64,000 bases of DNA from an uncultured virus (IMG/VR IMGVR_UViG_3300029288_000147) (lineage: Duplodnaviria; Heunggongvirae; Uroviricota; Caudoviricetes), in the IMG/VR virus record IMGVR_UViG_3300029288_000147. The stretch is one strand, 5' to 3'. The position numbers and the translations under genes were made by a program. How positions within the stretch are numbered: the first letter of the stretch is position 1; each line of letters starts with the position of its first letter. Under the pieces are notes generated by a model that saw only the letters and a list, made by a program, of their open reading frames with translations, did no database searches and had not been told where the DNA came from. Positions 39,156-56,843 of the stretch are shown here, one piece after another.

Positions 39156-39163
39156 AAATTTTG

Positions 39164-39234: not shown

Positions 39235-39242
39235 ATGTCATG

Positions 39243-39316: not shown

Positions 39317-39334
39317 GTCATCTTAGCAAGCTAG

Positions 39335-40019: not shown

Positions 40020-40093
40020 TGCACTCGGTAGGAATTGAACCTACTTAGTATTGGTTAAGAGCCAATTGCATATATCCGGTCTGCCACGAGTGC
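40020..40093 (-). tRNA. tRNA-Lys(CTT)
   Basis: Cloverleaf; loop CT-CTT-AA. Confidence 0.85.
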
Positions 40094-40099
40094 ATATAG

Positions 40100-40116
40100 A
40101 TGCTGATTTTCAGCAT
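40100..40116 (-). terminator. Hairpin just after the Ro60 stop codon
   Basis: ATGCTGA/TCAGCAT inverted repeat. Confidence 0.4.
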
Positions 40117-40123
40117 CATATAA

Positions 40124-41773: not shown

Positions 41774-41821
41774 GATTTTTCTCCTTCTGCTACGTTAATT
41801 TAACGTGAATTTATAAAATTG

Positions 41822-41885
41822 GATAGGAATAATAATAATGTTATTTTGTACGATATTAACGTTGTAAACATTATTCCGCTCTATC
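41822..41885 (-). ncRNA. Y-RNA-like element A (minimal, 64 nt)
   Basis: GATAG-AGCGG-AATAATGTT-TACAACG..AACATTATT..ATTC-CTATC. Confidence 0.7.
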
Positions 41886-42005
41886 AATATGGACAACTAT
41901 GTTAATGTTTTAGAGGTGGTAGTCATTAACTTGGAGTTAAGATTCTTGTTTCATAATCTCTCTATTTGCATCCTCACGCCTTCTTTGCCCATTTTCCAAT
42001 AATCA

Positions 42006-42150
42006 ATATAGGAATATTATAAATGATATTTTTTTTTACTGTGCTACCACTACACTATCTCCTCCATATAAACATAATTTGGGAGAAGATCAGGAATCGA
42101 ACCTGAGCCAGTAGCTTAATATGCGTTGTAATCATTTATCCGCTCTATAT
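42006..42150 (-). ncRNA. YrlA-like Y RNA (element B) with circularly permuted tRNA domain
   Basis: Same closing motif; interior has T arm CAGG-TTCGATT-CCTG, then loop-closed acceptor stem, then D arm GTG-TAGTGGTAG-CAC. Confidence 0.82.
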
Positions 42151-42164
42151 TTTAATAAATAAAC

Positions 42165-42252
42165 TAAACATGAATTTTGATAATGTTATTTTTTGTGTAT
42201 GACTTATTTCAATAATAATTTATACGTTGTAAACATTATCCCGCTATGTTTA
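42165..42252 (-). ncRNA. Y-RNA-like element C
   Basis: TAAACAT-AGCGG-GATAATGTT-TACAACG..AACATTATC..ATTC-ATGTTTA. Confidence 0.7.
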
Positions 42253-42255
42253 TTG

Positions 42256-42342
42256 TGTTCTCGGTGAGACTTGAACTCACAGGTTTAGGTTACCCATCCA
42301 TGGTTCTTAGCCATGTGACTTTCCCAATTTGTCTACGAGAAC
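42256..42342 (-). tRNA. tRNA-Leu(AAG)
   Basis: Cloverleaf with long variable arm; loop CT-AAG-AA. Confidence 0.82.
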
Positions 42343-42354
42343 ATATTGTAATTG

Positions 42355-42426
42355 TGGACCTGAGGGGATTCGAACCCCTTACTTCGCGGTGCAAGCGCAA
42401 TGTTTTCCCAATTATACTACAGGCCC
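42355..42426 (-). tRNA. tRNA-Ala(TGC)
   Basis: G3:U70; loop CT-TGC-AC. Confidence 0.85.
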
Positions 42427-42560
42427 ATAGATTATTTACAAAACTTAGGATTTATTAGCGCGTCTCACCATAACCCAGTTTCCATGATTCCTATTACAGA
42501 AACGCTCTTTCAAGGTGATACAGGTATTGAGGCTACGCACCATATTTTGTAAACAATTTG

Positions 42561-42634
42561 CGGTGCATACGAGACTCGAACTCGCACTAACTTGCCGCGA
42601 CAAAGCAAGGTTCTACACATTAAACTAATGCACC
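42561..42634 (-). tRNA. tRNA-Asp(GTC)
   Basis: Loop TT-GTC-GC; G73. Confidence 0.75.
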
Positions 42635-42640
42635 AAATTG

Positions 42641-42747
42641 TGGGAATACCCGGATTTGAACCGAGATTTGGTTCAGAGATAAATCTCGTCATAACCAACG
42701 ACTACTTATAAAGATGCTGTCTGTCTTTACCATTTGACTATATTCCC
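42641..42747 (-). ncRNA. tRNA-like RNA with aberrant anticodon arm and extended variable region
   Basis: Acceptor GGGAATA/TATTCCC, D and T arms intact, ~57 nt between D and T arms. Confidence 0.65.
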
Positions 42748-42809
42748 AGGCGATAAATCAACATAGTGTACTTTACGATCGATTATTTCCAAGCTATATT
42801 AATTTATCA

Positions 42810-42893
42810 TGGTGGTAGTGGTAGGACTCGAACCTACATAGCCTCACGGCGTCTGATTTACAGTCAGGTTACCTTGCCATCGGAATCACTACC
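42810..42893 (-). tRNA. tRNA-Tyr(GTA), CCA encoded
   Basis: Loop CT-GTA-AA, long variable arm, ACCA end. Confidence 0.85.
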
Positions 42894-43518
42894 TAATATT
42901 TTTTAAGAATGTTTTACCATAATATTTTTGCCAAATATTACCAAATTGATTTTCTATGGACAATAGTTCTTCTTTTTTTAACATATTAGAATGAACTAAT
43001 CTATGACAGTTAGGGCATAAATAACATAAGTTTGTATGATCATCAAAATTTTTTATTTTTTTACCATTTATATGATGTATATCACCAACCGCTTCATTCC
43101 AGCCACAATTTGAACATCCTATATTTTCATACCTTATTAGTCTTTTCATAATTTTTGAAATAGTTCTTTTACTTAATTGAGAAAATTTTTGAGGTTTTTG
43201 TATATTATGTTCAACCTTTCTTATACAATTACTACAATGTTTTTTTCTATCACTTTTAAAATATCTAATAAATTTTTTACCACATTTTTCACATATATGT
43301 GTTAACTGTTCCCGCTTACATTCTTCACATAATGAATCATTTTTTATATAAGCTGACGCTATAAATTTTTTGGAACATTTTTTACATATTATTTCTTTTG
43401 TGTATAATCTTATATGATGATTTTTTTTACATTCTCTACATACTTTATTATTAGGTGATCTTAGTCCAACTTTTAATTCTTTTTTACATATAAAACATTT
43501 TATTATTTTTGTTTTCAT
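42889..43518 (-). CDS. HNH endonuclease with multiple CxxC zinc ribbons
   Basis: CSNCGW..DIHHING..NLCYLCPNCHRLVH. Confidence 0.85.
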   Translation of the reverse strand: MKTKIIKCFICKKELKVGLRSPNNKVCRECKKNHHIRLYTKEIICKKCSKKFIASAYIKNDSLCEECKREQLTHICEKCGKKFIRYFKSDRKKHCSNCIRKVEHNIQKPQKFSQLSKRTISKIMKRLIRYENIGCSNCGWNEAVGDIHHINGKKIKNFDDHTNLCYLCPNCHRLVHSNMLKKEELLSIENQFGNIWQKYYGKTFLKNIR

Positions 43519-43583
43519 AATATTACTCTTATATCTATGTTTATATATATTAAATATAATGTATATTATGAAAAGTCACTATT

Positions 43584-43610
43584 TTTACAGTCAGGTGCCG
43601 TTACACTACC
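43584..43610 (-). pseudogene. 5'-half remnant of tRNA-Tyr
   Basis: GGTAGTG..ACCTGA-CTGTAAA matches the 5' acceptor strand and anticodon arm of tRNA-Tyr 42810-42893. Confidence 0.55.
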
Positions 43611-43873
43611 ATTTTTAATTTTATCTTGAATATAAGAAGTAAGAATATTTATTCCTTTATATTCGGGGATTACATCATAAGAATTATCTTTATTTCTTAT
43701 TTGATATTCTATTTTATATCTAGAATTTATAATAATTCTTAAAACGCCATATTTTGTTTCATATTTGCATTTTCCAAAGGTTTGCAAATCTACTAATAAG
43801 TCACTATAAAACTTGCAAATTTCATCTGTAATTAATTGCTCATTATCTTTAAATGTTTTCATTATTAAAACCT

Positions 43874-44257
43874 TTATTGTAATTCTAAACAATAATATTC
43901 ATTTCTATCTTCGTCGTTTTGTCTCAATATACTATGTTGAGTTGGGATAAAAATATTATCTTCAATTAGATATCCATATTGAGCCCATACATATTGATTT
44001 ATAGTATGTTCATCTAAGTTTCCACATCCTCGTATAGGATAAATTTTCATGCAAGTTACACAATCATTAGGTATGTCAATAATCATATGCACATCATTAG
44101 ATACAAATGCTGTATCATTTATTTCACAGAACCAATCTCCCACAGCTACAATCTTGACCACCCGATCATAAACATCTGTATTATTATATTGTGTAGGAGT
44201 GCTACAACTTAAACACAAAATAATAGACAATATTAAAATCAGATATTTGATGTTCAT
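43874..44257 (-). CDS. Putative lipoprotein
   Basis: Signal peptide with LSC lipobox-like sequence. Confidence 0.5.
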   Translation of the reverse strand: MNIKYLILILSIILCLSCSTPTQYNNTDVYDRVVKIVAVGDWFCEINDTAFVSNDVHMIIDIPNDCVTCMKIYPIRGCGNLDEHTINQYVWAQYGYLIEDNIFIPTQHSILRQNDEDRNEYYCLELQ

Positions 44258-44287
44258 TTATAAAATCCCTTATATAATTAATGTTTG

Positions 44288-44359
44288 CTCCCACCCGAGG
44301 GTTTGAACCTCAATTATCAGATTCAAAGTCTGATGTCCTGCCAATTAGACGAGATGGGA
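44288..44359 (-). tRNA. tRNA-Gln(TTG)
   Basis: Loop CT-TTG-AA. Confidence 0.88.
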
Positions 44360-44595
44360 ATATTTATTGTGTTTCTAATTCACCATATTTCATATTCATT
44401 TTAGCTGGGATTAATTGAATTAAATCATTCCCAGGTAATATTAAATGACGAGCGTATCCATTTTTTACTTTAATTTCAACATAATCACCATATTTATCAA
44501 TTTCATAAAATGATTTTGAATTAGATGCTTTTATAACCCAAAATGACTTTTTACCACTGGGAGTTTTCATTATTAGTTTATAATATGTCATAGTG

Positions 44596-44672
44596 TACTC
44601 GTGGTTGGAATCGAACCAACATGTTACCAATTAACCTTTCTACTCCTTATCAGAGAGAGGGTATACACGAGT
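44596..44672 (-). tRNA. Arm-swapped tRNA-like gene, anticodon GAT (Ile)
   Basis: Acceptor-TATACCCT-anticodon arm CTCT/CTGATAA/GGAG-D-like arm GTT/AATTGGT/AAC-T arm-A73. Confidence 0.72.
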
Positions 44673-44674
44673 AT

Positions 44675-44780
44675 AGGAAATAGTAGGATTTGAACCTACA
44701 CATATGTGCAGAGCATCGATGAATACACATACTTATCAACAATTTCTAAGATTGTCAGCTTAATCTTTGCTCATATTTCC
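44675..44780 (-). tRNA. tRNA-Leu(TAG)-like with ~39-nt variable arm
   Basis: ACAAT-CTTAGAA-ATTGT; oversized variable hairpin; U73. Confidence 0.65.
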
Positions 44781-44782
44781 TG

Positions 44783-44858
44783 TAGCCCGGGTAGGATTTG
44801 AACCTACGCATATTGGTATGTAACACCAGTGCCGTAGACCAGACTTGGCGACCGGGCT
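44783..44858 (-). tRNA. tRNA-Val(TAC)
   Basis: Loop GT-TAC-AT. Confidence 0.78.
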
Positions 44859-44863
44859 ATAGT

Positions 44864-44979
44864 AATTAAATAGGAATATAGAAGATGATGGTTCCAGTTT
44901 TTTTTAAGTGAACTTGGTAAAAACACTGAGCTGTGTTCAATGCATAGCGTTGTAATCACCTCCACCGCTCTATTTAATT
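44864..44979 (-). ncRNA. Y-RNA-like element D
   Basis: AATTAAATAG-AGCGG-TGGAGGTGAT-TACAACG..ATCATCTTCTA-T-ATTC-CTATTTAATT. Confidence 0.7.
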
Positions 44980-44980
44980 G

Positions 44981-45053
44981 TGCCGATGGGTGGAACCGAC
45001 CCACAACTCTCAAGTGCTTATGAAACACTGATTCTAACCCGTAGATCATCGGC
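44981..45053 (-). tRNA. Degenerate tRNA, anticodon CAT (Met/Ile2)
   Basis: Loop TT-CAT-AA; non-canonical T loop GTCGGTT and small D arm. Confidence 0.55.
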
Positions 45054-45072
45054 ATTAACCTTTATGCATTTG

Positions 45073-45166
45073 AAGCGGAAACGTGGGAGTCGAACCCACT
45101 ATCACGAGCTTATGAGGCTACGTATGGTATGACAAAATTAATTATCTTCCGTTCCACCCGTCCGCT
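45073..45166 (-). tRNA. tRNA-Met(CAT)-like with enlarged D loop
   Basis: Loop CT-CAT-AA, T arm GTGGG-TTCGACT-CCCAC, ~20-nt insertion in D loop. Confidence 0.6.
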
Positions 45167-45182
45167 ATAATTTATTTAATTG

Positions 45183-45256
45183 CCCCAACAGAAGGATTCG
45201 AACCCTCAACTTTGGTTTTGGAGACCAATGTGTTGCGCAATTGATACCATGCTGGG
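45183..45256 (-). tRNA. tRNA-Trp(CCA)
   Basis: Loop CT-CCA-AA. Confidence 0.82.
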
Positions 45257-45260
45257 ATTG

Positions 45261-45333
45261 TGGCGACTCGCGGTATCGAACCGCGTTCTTTGGATTTTCA
45301 GTCCAACGCAATGACCTCACTTGCTCAGCCGCC
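45261..45333 (-). tRNA. tRNA-Phe(GAA)
   Basis: Loop CT-GAA-AA. Confidence 0.82.
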
Positions 45334-45495
45334 ATTTTTTAAATTAATATTGTGTTGGACCTAAACGTGAACACAACCACGCTTCAATAAAACATCATGT
45401 TGTCATCATGTGCTATCTCTCTGCCGCTCCAGTGACAACCATTACATAATGACTAACTTTATATAATTGGTTGTTTGCGTATTAATTTAAAATTG

Positions 45496-45578
45496 AGGAA
45501 GGTAAGGGACTCGAACCCTTAGACGCTTACACGCCTCCAGTTTTCAGGACTGGTTCCTCATCCAGCCGGATACCTTCC
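45496..45578 (-). tRNA. tRNA-Ser(TGA)
   Basis: Long variable arm; loop CC-TGA-AA (C33). Confidence 0.82.
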
Positions 45579-45586
45579 ATATTTTG

Positions 45587-45660
45587 AGCACCTTATGGGG
45601 TACGATCCCATATAATTAGAGTGGAAGTCTAATATGTTGTTCCATTTACATCAAAGGTGC
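45587..45660 (-). tRNA. tRNA-Gly(TCC)
   Basis: Loop CT-TCC-AC; U73. Confidence 0.8.
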
Positions 45661-46486
45661 GTAAGTTATGCATTTTTATTAATCGACTAACTTGAGTATG
45701 ACTTATATTTAAATCCTCAGCAATTTTAGTAATAGATCCCCACTTTAATTGCTTATTTTTGTTTATAAAATCTATAATATAATTTATTTGATTTATTTTT
45801 ATTTCTTCTCTAATTTTTATACAAGAAGATTTTTTTATTTCTCTTTCTTTTATTTTATTATTTTTTCTTTCAATTCTATGATTAATTATTTGCTGTATTT
45901 CTTTTTCTAAAACTATATGATTTTTGGACGATATTGTATCATTTATTGTTTTTAGAATAAATTTTTCATTAAAACATAAATAGTATGGTATTTCTATTAT
46001 TACCCAACCTCTTTTTTCAAAATAATTATGTCTATTTCTATAATATTCTAATAACTCTCCACTTTTATCATAATGGAAATTTCCATTTATTTCAAATCCT
46101 ATTTTTAATTCTGGAATAGCAAAATCTAATTCATATAATCTGTCATTATCTTGTGGTATATAATATTGATAAAATCTTATGTTTGTTTTTTGTGCTATTT
46201 CTCTAAATCTTTTTTCTGGCTTTGTTTCTTTTTTGGGATTTGGAAATCTATTTTTTATATTTTGTTTTATATATTCTTTTAATTTTTTTGAAATTTTTTG
46301 TTTTGTTTCTTTAGATAGATGCTTACCATACCAATAATTTTTATTACCACTATTAGATTCACTTATTTTTCTTTTATGGTTATATGAAAAAAAGTATTTA
46401 TGTGGGTTTTTGTCACAATGTATAATGTGACCACCCAACTGTTGCTTTTTATTAAATTCTGAATTACAATATTTACATTGATACAT
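45629..46486 (-). CDS. Putative homing endonuclease (C2H2-like finger + NUMOD3 + DUF559 + HTH)
   Basis: CKYC..H..HC; NYWYGKHLSKETKQKIS; YELDFAIPELKIGFEINGNFHY. Confidence 0.78.
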   Translation of the reverse strand: MYQCKYCNSEFNKKQQLGGHIIHCDKNPHKYFFSYNHKRKISESNSGNKNYWYGKHLSKETKQKISKKLKEYIKQNIKNRFPNPKKETKPEKRFREIAQKTNIRFYQYYIPQDNDRLYELDFAIPELKIGFEINGNFHYDKSGELLEYYRNRHNYFEKRGWVIIEIPYYLCFNEKFILKTINDTISSKNHIVLEKEIQQIINHRIERKNNKIKEREIKKSSCIKIREEIKINQINYIIDFINKNKQLKWGSITKIAEDLNISHTQVSRLIKMHNLRTFDVNGTTY

Positions 46487-46492
46487 TAAATG

Positions 46493-46717
46493 CTAATCCG
46501 TTAAACACCATAGATACATATAATATTCTTTTAAATCTAAATCAGCAGCTCTTCTTTTTTTTCTATCAAAAAACGTTTTACCATTTCTACAATAACCACA
46601 ATTCCCTCTTCCACCATGATTTGGGTTTGTTGATCGACATGACCAATCAAATCTCCTTGAATCATAGTATGGTTTTCTCCAATCTTTTCTATTTGGATAG
46701 AGATTATCAAAAGCCAT
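46493..46717 (-). CDS. Small hypothetical protein
   Basis: RKPYYDSRRFDWSCR..HGG..CGYC. Confidence 0.55.
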   Translation of the reverse strand: MAFDNLYPNRKDWRKPYYDSRRFDWSCRSTNPNHGGRGNCGYCRNGKTFFDRKKRRAADLDLKEYYMYLWCLTD

Positions 46718-46750
46718 AAACTACCCTTTATTAAATTATATAAAATATTG

Positions 46751-46821
46751 TAGGCCTGCACGGTATTGATCCGTGTTCAATTGGTTAAAAGCCAATTGCT
46801 TCACCTTAAAGCTTCAGACCC
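46751..46821 (-). tRNA. tRNA-Lys(TTT)
   Basis: Loop CT-TTT-AA. Confidence 0.82.
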
Positions 46822-46852
46822 ATAAAACCAATCTTCAATATCTTTTATCTTG

Positions 46853-46926
46853 AGCAAAGGACGGGAATTGAACCCGCGTAGTCTACCTTGGCAAGGTAGT
46901 GCATAAAGCCTCTCTGCCACCTTCGC
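46853..46926 (-). tRNA. tRNA-Gly(GCC)
   Basis: Loop TT-GCC-AA. Confidence 0.85.
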
Positions 46927-47053
46927 AAATTTATTGGACATTGTAAACCATTGCAATGGGCTTTCTTTTACAATATCACTATAATAATCTCACTTCAGAT
47001 TGGTATGCGCATACCCAGAAAGCTCTCCTTTCAATGAGATTGTTTTATATTTG

Positions 47054-47127
47054 TGGACCTACTGAGACTTGAACTCAGATGCATGGGTTAAAAGCCCATT
47101 CCGTTACTCTTTTACGGGCATAGGTCC
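47054..47127 (-). tRNA. tRNA-Lys(TTT)
   Basis: Loop CT-TTT-AA. Confidence 0.82.
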
Positions 47128-47138
47128 AAATTTAATTG

Positions 47139-47211
47139 CTGCACCGGTCAGACTTGAACTGACATCTCCATGCTTAACAGGCACGTGTTTTAACATTAGT
47201 ACTACGGTGCA
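47139..47211 (-). tRNA. tRNA-Asn(GTT)
   Basis: Loop CT-GTT-AA. Confidence 0.85.
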
Positions 47212-47233
47212 ATATCCCAAAATGACTTCTTTG

Positions 47234-47317
47234 TGGAGCTATGAGATTCGAACTCACGAAAGCACATCATTAATTACTTGATGCCGAATTCCAATTCGTT
47301 TACTTACTATGAGCCCC
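47234..47317 (-). ncRNA. tRNA-like RNA with Ala-type acceptor and no canonical D/anticodon arm
   Basis: GGGGCT..GTGAG-TTCGAAT-CTCAT-AGCTCC-A; G3:U70. Confidence 0.6.
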
Positions 47318-47318
47318 T

Positions 47319-47409
47319 TGGTCACGGTGATCGGACTCGAACCGATTAACAGATGATTAGTCTTACAAGGTTGAAGGCCTTGCTGCTCGTCCACTTTGCA
47401 TTCACCGCG
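47319..47409 (-). tRNA. Atypical tRNA, anticodon TTC (Glu), long variable arm, CCA encoded
   Basis: CAAGG-CCTTCAA-CCTTG; ~19-nt variable region. Confidence 0.7.
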
Positions 47410-47412
47410 ATA

Positions 47413-47664
47413 TTACGTATAAACATCATATGTTTTCTTAAAAATGTCAAGTTTTACAGGATAAAATTCATTATGAATTCCCTTAACAATCATATCATTT
47501 TTGTGTGCAAACATTTCACCTTCTAATGTTTTAATGATAAGATTACCTTTATCATCAAATTTTGCGTGTCTATCAACAAATTCAATAATATCTTGTTTGT
47601 TATTACCAGTCCATTGTAATGCAAAAACAACAATTGGTTTTTTAACGTATCTTTTGGCTTTCAT
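47413..47664 (-). CDS. Conserved phage protein (related to 26366-26650)
   Basis: YVKKPIVVFALQWTG..IKTLEG..GEFYP-like motif. Confidence 0.6.
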   Translation of the reverse strand: MKAKRYVKKPIVVFALQWTGNNKQDIIEFVDRHAKFDDKGNLIIKTLEGEMFAHKNDMIVKGIHNEFYPVKLDIFKKTYDVYT

Positions 47665-47967
47665 TTTATGTTTGGTCCAATATAATATTTTTTGTATTTA
47701 TGAACTAAAGTCTTAAATCTTTTGTTCATATCATTGCTTCTTTTTGAAAAACAACCTTGATCAATATAATATAAAATATTGTATTTTTGTTCTATGGTCT
47801 CAGTTGCATTAGGTAATGCTGATTTTTTTAAGTCTTTTACAAAATCAAACCATTCATCAGGTATACTAGGCGTTGGCATCATTTCCCAATAAAATGCTGG
47901 TATAAATGTATGCTCTACGCCAGATATTGTCTGTTTAAATTTTTTAAAATTATACATATTAATTATG

Positions 47968-48053
47968 CTCCACGATTAGGAATCGAACCTAAGATGAGAG
48001 TTTCCTCTGATTGGTTAACAGCCAATTGCCTTCGTCCGCTCGGCCACCGTGGA
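47968..48053 (-). tRNA. tRNA-Asn(GTT) with long variable arm
   Basis: Loop CT-GTT-AA; variable hairpin AGAG-GAAA-CTCT. Confidence 0.78.
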
Positions 48054-48062
48054 ATAAATTTC

Positions 48063-48208
48063 CGTAGCGGCGGGAATTCCACCCGCTTAAAATAGCTCTC
48101 GAGATACTATTTTTCTGTTAGGCAACAGAATTACCATTATAATCCTTCGGGCGCCTATCTCCTATCTATTATAATGTGTCATAGCTTCTTTACTATGATT
48201 CACGCACG
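48063..48208 (-). ncRNA. Multi-hairpin RNA with tRNA-like acceptor/T-arm end
   Basis: Four AU-rich hairpins then GCGGG-TGGAATT-CCCGC and closing CGTGCG/CGCTACG. Confidence 0.55.
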
Positions 48209-48210
48209 TG

Positions 48211-48282
48211 TGGTAACGAGTGGACTTGAACCACCAACACCCTGGGCTTCAGCCAAGTGCTCTACATTTGAGCTACGTTACC
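48211..48282 (-). tRNA. tRNA-Phe(GAA)
   Basis: Loop CT-GAA-GC. Confidence 0.85.
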
Positions 48283-49259
48283 ATATATTCATTCTTTATA
48301 AGGATTCGGTTTTATGTGGTCACCATATAGTTTATTAATCAAATCCTTAATATATCTATTATTATCACCTTTAATCTTAACTTCTCTATAACAGGGCCAA
48401 TGTCCGTCTTTTAATTGACGATAATAAACTAATTCCCATTCATGTTCAATGCATAAATCTCGTAATTGATCCTCAACTATAAAATGTTCATTTTCAGTTA
48501 AGTATAAGCAAAAATAATGCGCATCTTTCATATAATCAATTTAATATTATTATTTAAATATATCATCCTGACATTTTTGACAAATACCTGAGATTAAATA
48601 TTCTTTTTTTGATAATACATCTCTGAAATCATTCATGTCAATTTTATTGTGACAAAATACGCAAATATTTTCTTTAATGCAATCTGTTAATGATTTGCCA
48701 AAAAGTGTTTCTGAAACTTGGTTACATAATTGTTCAAGTTGTTCTGATTTTTCTTTCATTTTAAAATCCTTTTAATATTGATTTAAGCTATACTTTTGTC
48801 AAAAACTGAGCAAGTAATGTATATCCATTATTAAGTTTAACTAATGCATCTTGATTATTAAATTCTTTTTCTGGTGTATTTTTGACCCATTTACCTTTGT
48901 ATAAAAATGTTTTAACAACATATACTTTATCTGGTGACATATTATGTTTTTTTAAATTTTGTTTAGTTTCTCTATCACCATCAGTCCATAAGTTTTGTCT
49001 AATTTTGACTTTATCTCCTGATTTTAAATTAGTTGTTAATGATTCTTTAATTAAAGATTTTAATTTTACCATTTAATATTCCTCAAATATTATATTTTTT
49101 CTTTCTCTAAGTATTTCATATGCCTTGTCACAATCGATACTATTATCATTTTTTGTAGGTATATTTAAATGGTAAAAATCTAAATATTCTAACAAATCAT
49201 CTTCATCTAATGACCAAATGTCACGGTCATCCATTTGTTCGATTGATGTAAACAACATT

Positions 49260-49679
49260 TTAACCCTCTTTTTTAACTGGCCAATAATAAGGTAAATTAT
49301 CTTTCTCTTTCCAATTAAATTGAGAATACCATTGTAAATTTTTTCTTAAAAGATTTGATCTATGACTTGAGTGTAATTTTTTATTACCAAACCAAAAAGG
49401 ATAATCAAAATAAATATCATAAGGAATATATTTTAATTTGATATTATTAAAACCTTTTAATTGCCATAATTCACATGCATAATTGTAGTAACATTTTAAT
49501 GCATCTAAATTATCTTTCCACATTAATACAGCTGGGTGATTTTTCCATGCATTTGTCTTTTGTTTACCTGACAATATATTAATGATTTGAAAAGCTTCTA
49601 CTCGTTGTTTTCCTAATCGTTTATTATCCAAACAGTCTAATGATAAAAAGAAATCTTCATAAGGAATGAATGTTTGCAT
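49260..49679 (-). CDS. Pyrimidine-dimer DNA glycosylase / MSMEG_6728-like protein
   Basis: MQTFIPY..LDNKRLGKQRVEA..HPAVLMW..HSSHRSNLLRK. Confidence 0.8.
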   Translation of the reverse strand: MQTFIPYEDFFLSLDCLDNKRLGKQRVEAFQIINILSGKQKTNAWKNHPAVLMWKDNLDALKCYYNYACELWQLKGFNNIKLKYIPYDIYFDYPFWFGNKKLHSSHRSNLLRKNLQWYSQFNWKEKDNLPYYWPVKKEG

Positions 49680-49683
49680 AATA

Positions 49684-49713
49684 TAAATATAATAAAATCA
49701 TTTGTCATATAGA
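49684..49713 (-). promoter_or_regulatory. Conserved phage promoter motif, copy 8
   Basis: TCTATATGACA-N13-TATTTA immediately before the ATG. Confidence 0.6.
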
Positions 49714-49764
49714 CATTTTTATTAAGTATAATAAAAACATAAAATTATATATTATTTATATATT

Positions 49765-49973
49765 TATATAGACTATAAGCGGGATTCTGTTTTATGTAAT
49801 TATCTTTCTAAGCCTCTACCAGATTATCATAGGTCTGCTCACCACCTAAATCACTTTGAGTTGCATCCTCAGTAGTATAACGAAATATATATTTCTTCTA
49901 CTTTAAGCAGAGATGTCCCGACTTTCCTCAGATAAAAACTGGAATGTTCCATCTGCAATTACTCGTCTATATA
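49765..49973 (-). ncRNA. rnpB: Minimal RNase P RNA (~210 nt)
   Basis: P1 TATATAGAC/GTCTATATA; CR-I GAGGAAAGTCGGGAC; CR-V AACAGAATCCCGCTTA; P2 GTAATT/AATTAC; P3 CAGAT/ATCTG; P5 CATC/GATG. Confidence 0.85.
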
Positions 49974-50232
49974 ATAAAATATTGTTCTAGCAACTGAACG
50001 TATAGCCTGTTTTCTATACTCACCTCGGTTGGTTACGTGGACTGTAGTAGCATGTCTAAATCACTAACAATTTAATGTAGCCTTGGTAAATGTCCTCTTT
50101 GACATCAGCATGATTTAGCTCCGTTGAACAATATTTATAACTTGTATAATGATTTTGGGCTGACTTTTAAATTACAACCAATACAACACATTTAATAGTG
50201 TCCGCTAATACGCGTTCAAAATCATTATATTG

Positions 50233-50318
50233 TATCCCAGGTGGGAATTGAACCCACACGCCTACTTTATTCGGCACTGGCTCCTAAGGCCAGCGTGTCT
50301 GCGTTCCACCACTGAGAC
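50233..50318 (-). tRNA. tRNA-Leu(TAG)
   Basis: Loop CT-TAG-GA, long variable arm. Confidence 0.88.
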
Positions 50319-50415
50319 ATATACAGTTAACAATCCTAAACATATCCTAGTTGATAATACATATAGACGTCTTATATGTCTCCAACATTACCAGTGCGGT
50401 GTTGTTAACTATTTG

Positions 50416-50491
50416 GGTAGCCGAGGAGATTTGAACTCCCGATCATTGGATTCACAGTCCAAGGTCTTAAACCAACTAAACGACGGCTACC
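50416..50491 (-). tRNA. tRNA-His(GTG)
   Basis: Loop CT-GTG-AA; G-1:C73. Confidence 0.9.
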
Positions 50492-50538
50492 ATGAAATTA
50501 ATCAAAAACTTTTTTAAGAACATCAACCTTCCAAGTTG

Positions 50539-50618
50539 TACCCCCAGAGGGACTCGAACCCTCATTTTTCATTCCAATTACCTGCTTACAGTTTAGAAGA
50601 CTGCGCGGATACGGGGGC
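50539..50618 (-). tRNA. Arm-swapped tRNA-like gene, anticodon TCT (Arg)
   Basis: GCCCCCG-TATCCGC-GCAGT/CTTCTAA/ACTGT-..AATTGGAA..-T arm-TGGGGGT-A. Confidence 0.68.
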
Positions 50619-50625
50619 ATATTTG

Positions 50626-50699
50626 TACTCGAGGAAGGACTTGAACCTTCGATCTTTGCCATGTCAAGGCAACGATTTAGCCAACTAATCTACTCGAGC
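50626..50699 (-). tRNA. tRNA-Val(GAC)
   Basis: Loop TT-GAC-AT. Confidence 0.88.
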
Positions 50700-50951
50700 A
50701 CATAAACAATTACTGTATAGCTATAAAATTTGTGCCATTTCCATCTTCAGGCCATTCAGGAATTTGTTCATGCATTACTTTATGAAAGTTATAAATATTT
50801 CCTTTTTCAAGAAGTAAAAGAGCATCGCAGTGAGGGCAATTAAGTGTAGCACTAATATTCATTAATTCGTTATTATTAATGTCAGTATAAAAACTTTTAT
50901 TGCACTCAGTACAAATAAATTGCATAATTTTTAACCTTTACTTGATTTTAG

Positions 50952-51027
50952 TGGACCTCCTGGGATTCCAACCCAGCTGCTATCTCGGGTGCAAGCCGAG
51001 TGACCACCGCTAGCAGTCCCGAAGCCC
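50952..51027 (-). tRNA. tRNA-Ala(TGC)
   Basis: G3:U70; loop CT-TGC-AC; T loop TTGGAAT. Confidence 0.8.
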
Positions 51028-51348
51028 ATTTTTTAACTATTGCTTATATACAGCCAAAGGTTTATAATCATCCCTATTGGGGTTAATACCTTTTTCTACA
51101 ATATGAATTTCATCAAAATTATTTTCAGGATTGAAACTTTGCGCAAGATTATTTATATCTTCTGCCATTCCTTCCCAATCTAAATCATCTGCATCAAATC
51201 CTTTTTTTACGCTGAAATTAACTGCGAACTGTTTCTTAAAATTTTGAAACTCACCATTCTTTTTTTGCTTTCTTGTCCAAGCTACACATGAAATTAACAT
51301 AGTTTTTTCTCCATTTAACTTTTGATTGATAAAATAGGGTATTTTTTG

Positions 51349-51425
51349 CACCGTATACGGGAATTGAACCCGCCTGATATCCTCCGTGACAGGGAGGCGG
51401 CCACAACCAAGCAGCCCCATACGGT
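51349..51425 (-). tRNA. tRNA-Asp(GTC)
   Basis: Loop CT-GTC-AC. Confidence 0.85.
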
Positions 51426-51433
51426 ATATTTTG

Positions 51434-51503
51434 CTTACATAATAGGATTCGAACCTATACCCCTGAACTAAGGTTCAGTGTGCTTCCATTACACTATATA
51501 TAA
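51434..51503 (-). tRNA. tRNA of undetermined identity (6-nt anticodon loop CCTTAG)
   Basis: Good acceptor, D and T arms; stem CTGAA/TTCAG encloses only 6 nt. Confidence 0.55.
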
Positions 51504-51594
51504 CAATCTTGATAATATTTCGGCAGTATATTATATGATTGTAGGCTGGGTGATAAGTTATTCCCTGCCGAGAAGCGTCTATCACTGTCCCTAG

Positions 51595-51672
51595 TACCCT
51601 TGATAGGATTTGAACCTACATGATTCCAAGTTAATCTTTCTACTCGTTCGTAGCGAGAGGATATACAAGGGC
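51595..51672 (-). tRNA. Arm-swapped tRNA-like gene, anticodon ACG (Arg)
   Basis: GCCCTTG-TATATCCT-CTCG/CTACGAA/CGAG-D-like arm GATT/AACTTGG/AATC-T arm-CAAGGGT-A. Confidence 0.72.
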
Positions 51673-51692
51673 ATATTTACTTAATTAAAATG

Positions 51693-51780
51693 AGCCGGCG
51701 ACAGGACTCGAACCTGCAGTGGACTTTTACATCGGCGGCTTACAAAACCGCTGCCTTCAGCCAATTCGGCTCACGCCGGC
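51693..51780 (-). tRNA. tRNA-Thr(TGT) with long variable region
   Basis: Loop TT-TGT-AA. Confidence 0.78.
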
Positions 51781-52022
51781 AAAATGTTATTATCTTTACA
51801 AACTTTATATAGAAGCTGCTCTAAATTTTCACAATTTTTACCAAACTCAACATATTCTGATGATAATTTTTCGTCATCATCTTTGAAATAACCATGGAAC
51901 ATATAATTATATTTTTCTCCATCATGAGAAATAATCTTTATATTCCAAAATTTATTTGTTATTGCAGCTAAATATTTTCCAATTAATTCATTATTCATTA
52001 TATAACCTTTTTATTTAATTTG

Positions 52023-52094
52023 TCGAGAAAGCTGGATTTGAACCTGCATCTCCGTGCTTCCAGGGCACGAGCTTTAACATTAAGCTACTTCTCG
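52023..52094 (-). tRNA. tRNA-Pro(TGG)
   Basis: Loop CC-TGG-AA (C33, A37). Confidence 0.75.
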
Positions 52095-52100
52095 ATATTG

Positions 52101-52174
52101 AGCTGCCAATGAGAATTGAACTCATATCCTATCCTTACCAAGGACAAATTCTAAACCGATTAAACTATGACAGC
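52101..52174 (-). tRNA. tRNA-Thr(GGT)
   Basis: Loop TT-GGT-AA. Confidence 0.82.
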
Positions 52175-52180
52175 AAATTG

Positions 52181-52256
52181 AGGCCCCAGTAGGAATCGAA
52201 CCTACGAATAGAGAGGTTGCAGCTCTCCGCGTTATAAACCATTTCGCCATGGAGCC
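52181..52256 (-). tRNA. tRNA-Cys(GCA)
   Basis: Loop CT-GCA-AC; U73. Confidence 0.88.
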
Positions 52257-52393
52257 ATATTTTAAATAAATAATTGATCTTCTATATTGTAATTATAGTG
52301 TTTTTTTCTAAAAATACAAATAATAAAGTTTAAAACTTTTTTCAATTTAATTACCAATTTTAATTATACTATATAAGGCAGGAATTTATTGTG

Positions 52394-52466
52394 TGCTTCG
52401 GATGGGACTTGAACCCATAAACCCATGCTTTTGAGACACGTTCCTTTGCCAATTTGGTACCGAAGC
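52394..52466 (-). tRNA. tRNA-Leu(CAA) with short variable loop
   Basis: Loop CT-CAA-AA; 5-nt variable loop. Confidence 0.75.
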
Positions 52467-52499
52467 ATATTCGATTTAGCAGAATCTTTTAAAAAATAT

Positions 52500-52598
52500 C
52501 AACATCCAAGAATAATCATCGTAATATGGATCGTATAAATCATACATCGATTGATAATATAATTCATAAGCAAATAATTCAAGAAATGATTTTTGCAT
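52500..52598 (-). CDS. 32-aa Tyr/Asp-rich small ORF
   Basis: SD AAAGGA; MQKSFLELFAYELYYQSMYDLYDPYYDDYLGC. Confidence 0.4.
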
Positions 52599-52622
52599 TT
52601 TTATTTTCCTTTAAAGATTTTG

Positions 52623-52697
52623 TAGGAGCGGTGGGAATTGAACCCGACCTCGGGGTGTTTATAAGACACCTTCCACCAACCAGATGGACTCGCTCCT
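52623..52697 (-). tRNA. tRNA-Ile(TAT)
   Basis: GGTGT-CTTATAA-ACACC; A73. Confidence 0.8.
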
Positions 52698-52815
52698 ATA
52701 TTTAATAATCAAGAAATGATGGTTTTTATTTTATTTCGAAACTCAACAAAACGAAACTTTAATAAAATTAATATGGTTTTTTTACAAGAACATTTACATA
52801 TTTTAAACTTGCTTG

Positions 52816-52898
52816 TATCGGAGGCGAGATTTGAACTCGCACGGCAATATTGCCTTGAGGGTTTAAGCCTCATATGTCTCCCGTTCCATCACTCCGAC
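52816..52898 (-). tRNA. tRNA-Leu(TAA)
   Basis: Loop CT-TAA-AC, long variable arm. Confidence 0.88.
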
Positions 52899-52909
52899 AT
52901 AATGTACAT

Positions 52910-52939
52910 ATAATATAACCTATTTCTTTGTCATATAGA
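52910..52939 (-). promoter_or_regulatory. Conserved phage promoter motif, copy 9, heading the tRNA array
   Basis: TCTATATGACA-N13-TATTAT ending 11 nt before tRNA-Leu(TAA). Confidence 0.72.
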
Positions 52940-54125
52940 CAAGTTTTTATAATTTATTATTTATATTATACTTATGCACTAAACTACTTATTATATTATA
53001 TTTATAAATATTATTATATATTAGAAATGTCATATTTTTGGCTAAATAAATTTTTATTTTTTCATAATTATTCATTACCACTTTTAAATCCTACTGATCT
53101 ATTATCCAATTTACCATCTATATATGGTTTAAATAAATTAATTTCTCTATCTTTGTCGACTTTTATACTATAGCCTAATTCTAATTTAGAGTCATATTCC
53201 ATCATTGTTTTTGAAAAAATAGAATTAATTTGTTTTGAAAATCTTTCTATTTGAGTTAATCCAGATATTGGAAAATAAAAATATTTATCACCAGTTTTTG
53301 TAACTAGAACATGATTGTCATGACTATAATATGTTGTTAATACTTTTATTCTAGTATTGTCTGGCACTATAATATCACCTTTCTTTATTCCTTTTATGCA
53401 ACTTTTAAATTCGATTAATTTCATATTTAGAAACTCCATACTTTATTATTAATCTATATAAAATTTCATGAATAATATAAAATACAAGGATTATTATACA
53501 ACTAAACACATTATTCTCCTTTTTCTTTCCATTCCTTATTTTCACCCGTGGGAATAAATTCTTCAATTACTCTAAATATTCTAAATATAGGGTATTTTTG
53601 AACCTCATTTTTATGACGATTAACCATACAATAAAATCCTTCTTTAACATAACAGTTATCAATATCTTCAAATGCCATTGGCAAAGATTGATCTCTATTT
53701 TGTACTTTAATTGTCAATGTTTTATGCTTTTTCATTTTTAATTTCCTTTTATATATTATAAAAAATTATGACTCTGATGTATATGGTGGTCTATAATCTT
53801 CCAGATGATAATTTTTGTATTGTTTTTCTAAATCTTCTAATTCTTTTTTAAGATTTGATTATCATTATTCTTTAAATATTCCTTCAAATAAGCAAGTCTA
53901 TCAATATCTTCTTCTATTCTTCCACCTGATGATGTCATTATTTGGCCTCCTCATTTTTATTAATATGTTCAATTATATTATCTATGTCTTTATTTATCGC
54001 ATATATTATGCTTTTTAATTCTTCTATTTTACATAACACATGATCATCTGGTAATTCTTTTACTCCAAATACTCCTTCATGAATAATTTTTGATCTTGGT
54101 GGAATTGGGTATCTTTTTATCATTT

Positions 54126-55238
54126 TTAACCTCTAGTCTTATTTTCAATTAAAGTATTAGTTGAAACCTTAATAAATTCTGTATTTTCTTGATAATGTTG
54201 AATATTCATAGCGTTACAATAACTCATTGATGATCGTAGCCCACCTTCATAATCTTTTATAATTTCTTTTAATGATTTAGGTTCACCAAATGATTTTAAC
54301 ACATGAGAAACACCTTCATATGTTCTATTTATAGCAAATGTTGATTCACCTTTATATTCTTTTCTCCAATCCATTGTTGGTTGCCAATCATAACCTTTAC
54401 CTATCGGTAGTCTATTATACGAAGGAACTTGTTCCATTATTGGACCCCAATCTGGGCTTTCTTTAGCATAAGCTAATATTTTGCCCATCATTACACAATC
54501 AGCACCCGCAGCAATTGCTTTACAAAAATCAGCAGGTTTTTCAATTCCACCATCCGCGATTAATGTAATATCACTTCTTTTAAGTACAGAAGCAATTTCA
54601 ATTATGGCAGATAATTGAGGAACACCAATTCCAGTCATAATTCTCGTACTACAACAACTTCCCGGTCCAATTCCGACTTTAATCCCATCTATATCTAATT
54701 CTTTATATATTTTTGCTGCTTCAGTAGTTGCTATATTTCCAACAACAATGTCAAAATTTAATTCTGTATGTTCTTTTAATCTATTTTTGTATTGTATTAT
54801 TTTTTTTACTTCTTCATAAACTTTATCATTGGCAGCATTTGCTACATCTAGAACAACAACTTTTGGGAAAAAATAATCATAATGAACAGAATCATCAAAT
54901 TCTTTTTTTACTTTGTGTAAAACTAATTCATCTAATAGTTGTTTCCAACCAATAATTCCAATTGAAATTCCAAAATTTTCATTTTTTATTTTTGTTATTT
55001 CTAAAAAATGATCATGTATTGGACCAAATCCTCTATGCAATATCCCAATACCACCTTCGTCTGACATAGCTTTGCACATATTAGAATCAGTTACGGTTCT
55101 CATATTAGCTGAAGATATTGGAATACGTAATTTTACGTTTCTTGAAAAATTAGAAGATATATCGACATCCATTCTTGAATTAATATGAGTCCAAGATGGA
55201 TTAATTAAAACATCATCAAATGTAAATTTTTCTATCAT
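54126..55238 (-). CDS. guaB: IMP dehydrogenase / GMP reductase family (no CBS domains)
   Basis: TFDDVLI, SANMRTVT, GIGPGSCCSTR, IADGGI, AGADCVMMG, GGLRSSMSY; IMPDH vs GMPR not resolved. Confidence 0.82.
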   Translation of the reverse strand: MIEKFTFDDVLINPSWTHINSRMDVDISSNFSRNVKLRIPISSANMRTVTDSNMCKAMSDEGGIGILHRGFGPIHDHFLEITKIKNENFGISIGIIGWKQLLDELVLHKVKKEFDDSVHYDYFFPKVVVLDVANAANDKVYEEVKKIIQYKNRLKEHTELNFDIVVGNIATTEAAKIYKELDIDGIKVGIGPGSCCSTRIMTGIGVPQLSAIIEIASVLKRSDITLIADGGIEKPADFCKAIAAGADCVMMGKILAYAKESPDWGPIMEQVPSYNRLPIGKGYDWQPTMDWRKEYKGESTFAINRTYEGVSHVLKSFGEPKSLKEIIKDYEGGLRSSMSYCNAMNIQHYQENTEFIKVSTNTLIENKTRG

Positions 55239-56768
55239 CTATATTTCCTTATTGCTGAATTCAAACCCAATAGGTTTGTTTTTAATATCATTAAAATCTC
55301 CTAATTAATTTATTACGCATTTGTTATGGCATATAATAACATATTTTGCTATATATGAGGCAATTTTATTATTTATCATTAATTCATCAAATTCATTTAT
55401 TAATTTACTTTTTCTTTTTTTTAAGAAAAAACATAATATGCCATTTATTTTCATACTTAATTCTATAATTCTATGTGCTATAACAATATCAGTTGATGTT
55501 GCATTATATTTTTTACATGCATAATCAAAATTATAAGAATCTATTACGGCAATAGCTACTCCGACCGGTGGCATATTTTGCTCCTATTAATAAACCACGT
55601 CTTCTAAATTAATATCATAAGGCGGGATTCCTTCGATGTCAATGACTTCTGTTTCTATTCCCTCTAAATTTCCAATGATAATATTCATTATTGAAAGTCC
55701 ACATCATCATCAAACAAGACGAGTTGATCATTATTTTTTTCTAATGATATAAATAAATGAGGCGTTTTTTCTTCTTTTTGTTCACCATTTGATGAAATAA
55801 ATGATAAGTCATATAATTTAACTAAAATACCAATTGTTTTATTTTCATTGGATATTTTAATAAATAAAGAATCATCATTTTCTTTTTTTTCTAAAGAATA
55901 TTTCATGAATTAATACCTCTTTTTTAATTTGCTGGTTTACTATTTTTATTTTGTGTATTTTTGCAAATATTAATTAATTCATAACAAGCATCATATAAAC
56001 TATCACAATCACCTACTTTTTGTGTTATTATTGCTTCATCAATTCTTTCAAATGACCTTACATCACAAGAAGAATATGAAGATATAGAGTTGATATATTC
56101 TACATTTTTTGCAAATGTTTCTTGTATTTTTCTCAACGTTGTATTAATAAGTTCTACAACAACAATGTCTTTATAATTAGAAAGATTTTCTATTCTTTCT
56201 TTTTTCATAAGAAGAAGAGTTTCAATTTGTTTTTCTAATTCTAATAGTCTAATTGTTGGATGGTTTGGATTCATCATTTTGATTTTCCTCTGTTTTTATT
56301 TTTTTGTGTCTATCTCTAATAATATTTACTGCTTCTAATAATTTAAACGCAAATCTTTCTGCATATTCTGCATCAACTAATAGTGAAAAAGAATCTTCTA
56401 AATAATTATTTATTTCTTCTTCTGTTCCATTTAATCTATTAGGATATCTTAAATTACCATTTCTATCATAATTTTCACCAACAATCATAATGCCATCTTG
56501 TGGTATTATTTCACCATTATCTTCAATATAATCTTTCAAAATTTGTATTGACATTATATATTGAAATTCATTTGAACACTCTAAAAATTCTTTAAAGTTG
56601 TTGTTATAACATTGTTTTCTTTCGTTTTCTAATTCGTTCCATTCTTTTAAATCTGTAGCATCCATATCATCATCAATGTCATCATTCCAATAGACTTCAT
56701 AAAATTCTTCAACAGGCGTAATTGATTTGCTCATTGTGAAACTCCTTTTTATTTTTATATGGTTATTG

Positions 56769-56843
56769 TACCCTTAATGAGACTCGAACTCATACCATAT
56801 CATCTTAGGAGGATGATGTTCTTTCCAATTAAACTATAAGGGC
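56769..56843 (-). tRNA. tRNA-Arg(CCT)
   Basis: Loop CT-CCT-AA. Confidence 0.88.

Follow-up and report, generated by a model that had tools for sequence, protein, structure and literature searches.

RNase P RNA, a ribozyme by which new tRNAs are trimmed at their 5′ end, is counted among the housekeeping ribozymes of the cell. The locus described here lies among the tRNA genes of a large uncultured phage and raises the question of whether a phage can carry an RNase P RNA of its own, in strongly reduced form, and what such an RNA would do in the infected cell. A sequence-only reading of this DNA had proposed a phage-borne miniature RNase P RNA that has lost most of its specificity domain, and had suggested a search with the Rfam RNase P models.

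Comparison of the region 49600–50230 with all Rfam families by cmscan, at an E-value threshold, gave one strong match, to bacterial RNase P class A (RF00010) at 49760–49974 (−), with 64.1 bits and an E-value of 3.2e-19. The match runs end to end over model positions 1–367, with the specificity-domain (S-domain) blocks and P18 deleted. This bears out the proposal of a strongly reduced, phage-borne RNA in which the catalytic domain is kept and CR-II/III and P18 are gone, at a score below the curated cut-off. A scan of the whole window (the full 64,000-nt stretch of uncultured-phage DNA that was analysed) at the gathering threshold reported 33 tRNA matches and a tmRNA but not RNase P RNA, which was missed because 64.1 bits falls under the RF00010 cut-off of 100 bits; by score, then, the RNA does not reach the gathering threshold for RF00010 membership. 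The earlier reading had placed the locus correctly at 49765–49973, but its exact ends did not hold: the P1 helix, by which we define the gene ends, gives 49764–49974 (−), 211 nt, with RNA position 1 at 49974. CR-I (GAGGAAAGTCGGG, 49929–49917) and CR-V (ACAGAATCCCGCTTA, 49790–49776) were confirmed on the minus strand. The window holds one copy, being matched once by the covariance model R1 derived from it. The stretch was found in landfill and groundwater metagenome DNA contigs only, with no variants within the RNA, and in no RNA data set; a peak in depth at 49774–49807 corresponds to the conserved CR-V of other organisms. Judged by its sequence, the stretch encodes an RNase P RNA homologue that has lost the S-domain and P18 and retains a covarying catalytic-domain fold (Table 1).

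Table 1. The miniature RNase P RNA, its parts and the neighbouring or related genes of the window
Feature	RNA positions	Window positions	Strand	Observation
Whole miniature RNase P RNA		49764–49974	−	RF00010 match, P1 helix ends
P1 5′ strand	1–10	49965–49974	−	pairs with 49764–49773; 10 perfect pairs in the window
P1 3′ strand	202–211	49764–49773	−	10/10 pairs doubly changed, 93.4% paired, 38 relatives
P2 5′ strand	13–18	49957–49962	−	pairs with 49796–49801 (RNA 174–179)
P3 hairpin	21–45	49930–49954	−	8/8 pairs covary, 96.9% paired; also in MFE fold
CR-I GAGGAAAGUCGGG	46–58	49917–49929	−	P4 5′ strand; exact match to Rfam consensus block
P5 5′ strand	60–63	49912–49915	−	pairs with 49864–49867 (RNA 108–111)
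Specificity-domain stub, 44 nt	64–107	49868–49911	−	no match to RF00010 CR-II/III block
P6 pseudoknot 5′ strand CUGC	65–68	49907–49910	−	pairs with GCAG 49835–49838
J5/15 strand GCAA	111–114	49861–49864	−	aligned to RF00010 GCAA; conserved in at least 85% of relatives
P15–P16–P17 module with L15 internal loop	115–161	49814–49860	−	helices covary
J18/2 (CR-IV) equivalent GCUUAGAAAGAU	162–173	49802–49813	−	12 nt, P15 directly to P2
CR-V ACAGAAUCCCGCUUA	185–199	49776–49790	−	holds P4 3′ strand, RNA 192–198
tRNA region enclosing the RNase P RNA		39079–56843	−	35 tRNA genes (ARAGORN); 33 Rfam matches
tRNA-Leu(UAG), nearest upstream gene		50232–50318	−	257 nt before the RNA, same strand
Pyrimidine-dimer glycosylase-like ORF, 139 aa, nearest downstream		49260–49679	−	84 nt after the RNA; PF03013, E 1e-19
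CCA-adding enzyme (tRNA nucleotidyltransferase)		1178–2620	−	PF01743, PF12627, PF01966; phrog_2244, E 3e-59
tmRNA gene		63642–63994	−	RF00023, 117.2 bits; ARAGORN

The elements that the earlier reading had listed, namely P1, P2, P3, P5, a P15 region and P4 formed by CR-I and CR-V, were all found, and they pair across relatives. The catalytic-domain helices P1, P2, P3, P5, P15 and P16/17 are 83.6–99.1% paired, with almost every pair changed on both sides, in an alignment fitted to the RNA's own model. P2 covaries in 6/6 pairs (99.1% paired) and P5 in 3/4 (98.7%), each over 38 sequences, and the three helices of the P15–P16–P17 module (helices 9–11 of the alignment; P15, RNA 115–117/159–161; P16, 123–126/150–153; P17, 127–131/141–145) are 97.4, 94.0 and 83.6% paired in the same set. 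P4 is made of seven pairs, RNA 51–53 and 55–58 with 192–198, and leaves U54 bulged. The 3′ strand of L15 reads UGGUA (RNA 154–158); its GGU (49818–49820, RNA 155–157) is kept in at least 85% of relatives, and we take it to be the type A motif that binds the tRNA CCA. Within the J18/2 strand, UAGAAAGAU aligns to the RF00010 consensus and is conserved in relatives. The J5/15 GCAA is the counterpart of the E. coli region around A248, a residue described in PMC6582537 as meeting tRNA residue −1. P18 is absent, the corresponding RF00010 block of 24 positions being reduced to 0 in the cmscan alignment; a hairpin is inserted at this site in the larger relatives L020, L023, L025, L028 and L030. The missing P18 and the missing CR-II/III thus agree with the earlier description, the corresponding RF00010 blocks being deleted or replaced.

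A second long-range pairing, P6, joins the start of the stub to GCAG (RNA 137–140) in the P17 loop. All 4/4 of its pairs are doubly changed and 91.3% are paired in the 38 sequences, P6 being outside the search model. The pairing recurs in an independent subfamily of 147–162 nt, where the loops of P5 and P17 are joined in this way through four different pairing sequences. A 2-bp extension of P5 (RNA 64–65 with 105–106) was rejected in favour of P6, as it is not kept in relatives.

Whether this fold has been maintained was assessed by comparison with relatives, which were gathered by a pattern consisting of CR-I and CR-V, with one free letter per P4 half and a set gap. Because MAFFT alignments misplaced the variable 5′ helices P1–P3, a single-sequence covariance model (R1) was built from the window RNA with a hand-drawn nested structure and the relatives were aligned by Infernal; R1 matched 41 of 46 sources in one search and 46 of 54 in the next. 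The covariation set comprised the 38 sources scoring at least 70 bits with R1, after removal of duplicates by contig or score (L050, L073, L087, L068, L081, L060, L077, L092), of L022 and L044, and of the badly aligned P18-bearing L020, L023, L028 and L030. P4 and P6, neither of which is in R1, were added to the alignment as pseudoknots. Standard pairs occupy 94.8% of the 2096 pair cells in these 38 sequences, against 65.5% in shuffles, a result that for the nested helices leans towards the RNA's own structure, the alignment having been fitted to R1, and that for P4 and P6 is independent of R1. None of 500 shuffles was as high, and with the partners slid only 33–42% were paired; 52 of the 61 pairs are changed on both sides. 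The invariance of CR-I and CR-V is not independent evidence, being fixed by the search pattern (for CR-I in all but one letter). At the single P4 pair that the pattern leaves open, with N on either side, 24 sequences have A-U, nine G-C and four C-G, and one is unpaired (n=38).

The relatives are diverged, with a mean column identity of 50%, and of the 63 columns that at least 85% of the other 37 sequences share, the window copy matches 60. Among its three deviating columns are the two of the innermost P2 pair, which is U-A in the window and C-G in 37/37 relatives, a compensated double change. Measured against these columns, the window copy is intact. The minimum free energy fold shows no unusual stability, with a z-score of −1.42 and 12 of 200 shuffles as stable, and recovers P1, P3 and P4 but not P2.

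In place of the S-domain there is a short stub. The RF00010 S-domain blocks of 15, 15 and 110 positions correspond to 16, 8 and 16 nt in the phage RNA, and no CR-II/CR-III (P7–P14, the T-loop docking module) was found by the RF00010 alignment. The sequence-only reading had put about 45 nt and two small hairpins between the P5 strands; the size stands (44 nt), but the two hairpins give way to one bipartite stem-loop, composed of a 5-bp P7-like helix (RNA 73–77/100–104) and a distal 5-bp hairpin (80–84/89–93), along with the P6 5′ strand, an AA bulge, the internal loop GUUAUA and a GAG junction. The P6 strand within the stub had not been mentioned in that reading. Both stub helices (helices 7 and 8) covary, with 95.7% and 89.9% paired in the 38 sequences. 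The two-base bulge has the form NA, ending in A, in 37/38 sequences; the opposite (3′) loop, of 5–7 nt, likewise ends in A in 37/38, and the GAG junction is present in 25/38. A T-loop-like UUNNA reading of the internal loop fits only 20 of the 38 sequences. Identification of the internal loop as a K-turn was rejected, there being no tandem G-A.

By motif, fold and alignment, the phage RNA belongs to a large family with dozens of relatives, which occur in viral, metagenome and some bacterial contigs. The earlier reading had tied its proposal to conserved homologues of the reduced form, and these exist in numbers. Loci carrying the exact CR-I/CR-V search pattern in IMG/VR were sorted by the gap between the motifs, as follows, with the loci having a co-oriented tRNA within ∼300 nt in brackets: 7 loci at 80–110 nt (7), 9 at 110–140 nt (8), 15 at 141–171 nt (9), 11 at 172–202 nt (10), 14 at 203–233 nt (10), 28 at 234–264 nt (17) and 37 at 265–295 nt (18). 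Among metagenome contigs the same motif pair was found at 49 loci, and among contigs of bacterial genomes or MAGs at 14. To judge from these gaps, the forms in viral contigs make up a continuous range, from the fully stripped to those near full size, and the window RNA is in the smaller half of it. Some long forms sit at the end of a contig and may belong to host flanks. Of the first 9 viral loci, 8 were matched to RNase P class A by Rfam, 2 of them above the cut-off; the relatives passing 100 bits are L005 (118.5 bits) and L008 (106.8 bits). The P1 helix of the relatives, as delimited by script, has 4–27 bp, mostly at least 7, in a sequence that varies by locus, and it gives RNA lengths of 147–252 nt. 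A tRNA lies within 2 kb in 25 of 31 viral loci, often abutting the RNA. Among GenBank phages, a blastn search (“distant”) gave no match for the window RNA with its flank, nor for L012, L048 or L026. The window RNA shows the traits of the miniature family, i.e. a length within 147–250 nt, the full catalytic domain, P4 and P6, the stub, co-oriented tRNAs and a phage setting.

The window is phage-like by its gene content. All 111 scanned ORFs (at least 60 aa) lie on one strand and ∼70% have no Pfam match; those that can be named include an RNA ligase, a thymidylate synthase, a helicase, HNH and GIY-YIG homing endonucleases, an Hsp20 and a lytic transglycosylase, and PHROG families agree with the Pfam-based names. 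RnpA (PF00825) was found in none of the 111 ORFs of the window, which is only part of a phage genome that may carry rnpA elsewhere, and in none of 5 related viral records, 3 of which are at least 90% complete. A promoter scan gave 6 promoter-like sites, against 6.7 expected, none usefully placed, and no terminator above chance. The tmRNA, whose precursors are RNase P substrates, the CCA-adding enzyme and the RNA ligase are further tRNA maturation or repair genes of this phage; the CCA-adding enzyme is relevant because CCA is encoded in only 2 of the 35 tRNA genes.

The tRNAs themselves are largely ordinary. Thirty-three matches reach the Rfam tRNA cut-off end to end, and 31 of the 35 ARAGORN tRNAs have a UUCNA T-loop and 29 of the 35 the D-loop GG. 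The earlier suggestion that the RNA matures many non-canonical tRNAs is not supported by these counts, nor by the position of the relatives in ordinary tRNA arrays. Residue −1 is U in 31/35 tRNA leaders, and tRNA-His has G at −1; in E. coli, ∼60% of leaders have U at this position according to the available part of PMC6582537. The substrates thus look suited to a domain that reads the cleavage site only. Two tRNA matches reported by Rfam only, of 106 nt (44675–44780) and 107 nt (42641–42747), and a tRNA with an odd anticodon loop (51433–51503) are also present in the window.

Comparison with known systems indicates where such an RNA may belong. With class A RNase P RNA (RF00010; E. coli M1/rnpB) it shares P1–P3, P4 with its bulged U, P5, P15–P17, the P6 pseudoknot (a class A trait), the L15 GGU, J5/15 and J18/2. 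Class A RNAs, however, are roughly 350–400 nt long and encoded by a single-copy cellular gene, whereas the phage RNA has 211 nt, lacks CR-II/III, P8–P14 and P18, and lies inside a tRNA array. The archaeal type T RNA (Thermoproteaceae/Pyrobaculum) also has an S-domain that is degenerate, lacks P18, has a P6 by prediction, and is reported to be catalytically active in the portions available of PMC7191817 and PMC5839562. Type T is archaeal, works with archaeal proteins and is the sole RNase P RNA of its cell, whereas the phage RNA has a bacteriophage context. An archaeal-type catalytic domain was not found in the phage RNA; its best RNase P-clan match is bacterial class A, and the likeness to type T is convergent for that reason.

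The closest architectural counterpart is engineered. Eco CP RPR (Mao et al. 2018, PMC5839562), obtained by S-domain deletion, has the same architecture as the phage RNA; it is a laboratory construct, whereas the phage RNA is natural, retains a 44-nt stub that is conserved, and is a member of a diverged family. PMC5839562 describes that the E. coli C-domain on its own cleaves whether or not the C5 protein is present, ∼120-fold more slowly, that an S-domain-less B. subtilis RNase P RNA is ∼25,000-fold less efficient, that the E. coli C-domain requires a “P6-mimic” pairing, and that P18 contributes nothing once the S-domain, which holds its P8 partner, is removed. On this comparison, the phage family has kept the pattern of the laboratory deletions, with P6 under selection and P18 lost in the window RNA.

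Extra RNase P RNA homologues have been described in Mycobacterium austroafricanum and M. sp. YC-RL4 (Behra et al. 2022, PMC9569102, available in part), where they occur beside the normal gene, with functional residues conserved and mainly the specificity domain altered, and where horizontal acquisition is suspected. Those copies are chromosomal and, in the accessible part of that paper, are not described as a phage or tRNA-array family. The RNase P-like RNA of camelpox virus is also a virus-encoded RNA resembling RNase P RNA, but it comes from a eukaryotic virus, is reported to be inactive in pre-tRNA processing and has no tRNA-gene link in the available text of PMC3001073. A search of full-text literature, with subscription journals outside its reach, returned no description of a phage-encoded RNase P RNA, and the available parts of two RNase P gene-finder papers and of a huge-phage survey do not mention one.

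We consider it probable that the window encodes a functional, selection-maintained accessory RNase P RNA, derived from class A, that borrows the host RnpA to process phage pre-tRNAs. The strands on which function depends (the P4 bulged U, the J5/15 GCAA, the L15 GGU and J18/2) are kept. Such an RNA would be transcribed together with the neighbouring tRNA array and would fold into a catalytic domain, P1–P5 plus P15–P17, locked by the P4 and P6 pseudoknots. It would then bind host RnpA, the use of which is plausible, and the complex would cut the 5′ leaders off phage pre-tRNAs and perhaps pre-tmRNA. We infer a relaxed recognition of the tRNA elbow; where the elbow is not read, the RNA would recognise its substrates by the acceptor stem, by residue −1 and by the contact between leader and protein, and the L15 GGU would add substrate recognition after CCA addition. 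The phage would thereby gain extra or host-independent capacity for tRNA 5′-processing in infection.

Other readings have to be weighed against this one. RnpA binds the catalytic-domain region of RNase P RNA, which is the part retained here, and rnpA was found neither in the window nor in the five related records, so that the RNA might be a non-catalytic decoy or regulator that sequesters host RnpA or pre-tRNAs and thereby slows or diverts the processing of host tRNAs; an inactive virus-borne precedent is reported in camelpox virus (PMC3001073, available in part). We regard this as unlikely, since the strands for chemistry and substrate (P4 bulged U, GCAA, GGU and the P6 lock) are conserved beyond what protein binding would ask for, and since the genes lie inside phage tRNA arrays, whose transcripts depend on RNase P; a block of the enzyme would deprive the phage of its own 35 tRNAs.

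It also seems improbable that an active ribozyme works independently of host RnpA, either with an unrecognised phage protein as cofactor or protein-free in the infected cell. The large share of window ORFs that have no Pfam match could hide a new cofactor, yet no conserved neighbouring ORF is evident in an unsystematic comparison, the window having the glycosylase-like ORF and the relatives tRNAs. Protein-free activity of C-domain constructs needs non-physiological salt. C-domains can cleave without protein in vitro, although such cleavage is slow in the available text of PMC5839562.

Since the S-domain reads the T/D-loop elbow (PMC7191817 and PMC5839562, both available in part), its loss could also have shifted the substrate range of an active ribozyme, towards non-tRNA or odd tRNA-like substrates such as insertion-bearing tRNAs, pre-tmRNA or phage mRNAs, a reading that comes near the earlier suggestion. 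The window does contain a few unusual tRNA-like genes and a tmRNA; the predominance of canonical T-loops (31/35) and D-loop GG (29/35), together with the occurrence of the same RNA family in arrays of ordinary tRNAs, makes such a shift very unlikely.

That the locus is a functionless, decaying fragment of a captured host rnpB, as its score under the Rfam cut-off and the loss of about half of the normal RNA might suggest, is barely credible and is contradicted by a precise deletion, by the pairing and covariation of the catalytic-domain helices across dozens of diverged relatives, and by the family-conserved columns and compensated P2 change in the window copy.

The probable role as an accessory RNase P RNA can be set beside copies found outside phages. 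In the chromosome of the cultured Achromobacter anxifer LMG 26857, a full-size rnpB (202 bits) is accompanied by a mini copy (82.7 bits), which is flanked by tRNA-Pro and tRNA-Arg within a region of 47 tRNAs and a tmRNA-like gene; this region adjoins a type IV secretion coupling protein, as in a conjugative-element-like array. Gemmataceae MAG contigs, too, have window-like copies next to runs of tRNAs. Among 41 sampled Gemmataceae genomes, 33 have a full-size RNase P RNA gene and 3 have a mini-size match only, and the mini form is accessory in this group because 33/41 carry the normal full-size gene. A cellular mini RNase P of Gemmataceae was rejected on the same count and on the position of the mini copies beside tRNA arrays.

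A wider proposal, which we advance tentatively and hold to be doubtful, is that mobile tRNA arrays bring along a streamlined RNase P ribozyme within a portable, host-independent kit for tRNA production, that these natural RNAs of 147–250 nt are fully competent in vivo, and that the stub of the window's subfamily senses the tRNA body. If so, the kit would consist of tRNAs, tmRNA, the CCA-adding enzyme, RNA repair enzymes and RNase P RNA, and would be shared by phages and conjugative elements; the stub, with its NA bulge, G...A internal loop and GAG junction, would be a minimal replacement of the specificity domain and not a leftover.

Standard annotation misses most members of the family, because their scores fall below the Rfam cut-off; the cultured Achromobacter copy makes the family experimentally reachable. 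The natural deletion series, from 147 to ∼250 nt and beyond, would show which parts of RNase P RNA are dispensable in vivo, and it agrees with the laboratory deletions in that P6 is needed and P18 is dispensable once the S-domain is gone. The series also offers natural scaffolds of very small size to structural and synthetic-biology studies of tRNA processing. With a diverged family of half-size copies on phages and other mobile elements, the housekeeping picture of RNase P RNA would change, to one in which viruses, too, carry the RNase P ribozyme.

The array in which the mini RNase P RNA lies holds several unusual tRNA-like genes. Two Rfam matches, of 106 and 107 nt, lie where ARAGORN makes no call and look like tRNAs bearing an insertion of ∼30 nt; a third gene is read with an anticodon of just two bases. 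Among the tRNA genes of the window, CCA is encoded in only 2 of the 35, most being followed 3′ by C and then A-rich sequence (discriminator-C-A-A); the last leader base is U in 31 of the 35, with ...AU common. The phage carries its own CCA-adding enzyme, and the tRNA region also contains a 549-aa ORF that matches a PHROG annotated as an RNA-binding protein and has no Pfam match.

Upstream of the mini RNase P RNA, the spacer that separates it from tRNA-Leu is devoid of any ORF, tRNA or Rfam match. Its predicted fold is more stable than those of shuffled sequences (MFE −59.2 kcal/mol, z −2.46, 1 of 200 shuffles equally good), and the spacer may contain a further small RNA. Within the mini RNase P gene, four metagenome runs show a peak in contig depth at window 49774–49807, over CR-V; this conserved stretch also matches RNase P genes carried by other organisms from the same samples.

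Coordinates of the features discussed
Feature	Location	Strand	Details
tRNA match	window 44675–44780	−	106 nt; Rfam 50.5 bits; no ARAGORN call
tRNA match	window 42641–42747	−	107 nt; Rfam 43.5 bits; no ARAGORN call
tRNA of undetermined identity	window 51433–51503	−	two-base 'anticodon' (tt); ARAGORN; Rfam 52.8 bits
CCA-adding enzyme	window 1178–2620		
549-aa ORF	window 40124–41773	−	phrog_850 'RNA-binding protein', E 1e-27
tRNA-Leu/mini RNase P RNA spacer	window 49975–50231	−	257 nt
Tandem mini RNase P-like matches	L075 1–137 and 208–393		
Tandem mini RNase P-like matches	L091 711–870 and 873–1069		
GOLLD RNA/tmRNAs near mini RNase P genes	L006 3719–4162; L007 2587–2975; L012 107–426		
Achromobacter anxifer LMG 26857 array (L196)	G008:C5:4100–24000		
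RF00010 match, Candidatus Shapirobacteria MAG (L096/L038)	G009:C2:34048–34259		212 nt; 88.9 bits

Elsewhere, two metagenome contigs (L075 and L091) each carry a tandem pair of mini RNase P-like matches. On viral contigs, further large structured RNAs, namely GOLLD RNA and tmRNAs, were observed near mini RNase P genes, the GOLLD match scoring 149.9 bits and being cut by the locus end.

The cultured Achromobacter anxifer strain carries a mini RNase P RNA in a stretch of ∼15 kb that also contains 47 tRNA genes, together with a permuted tmRNA-like gene and an AlkB-like oxygenase. A type IV secretion coupling protein adjoins this stretch, which resembles a mobile tRNA array borne by a conjugative element.

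The Candidatus Shapirobacteria match is the sole RF00010 (bacterial RNase P class A) match in a 0.9-Mb candidate-phyla-radiation genome, and no tRNA lies close to it; across 40 further genomes from the same class, the single RF00010 matches span 259–494 nt (38–122 bits). It shares a remnant of the specificity domain with the viral locus L004, and may represent a case of natural reduction in a cellular RNase P RNA.
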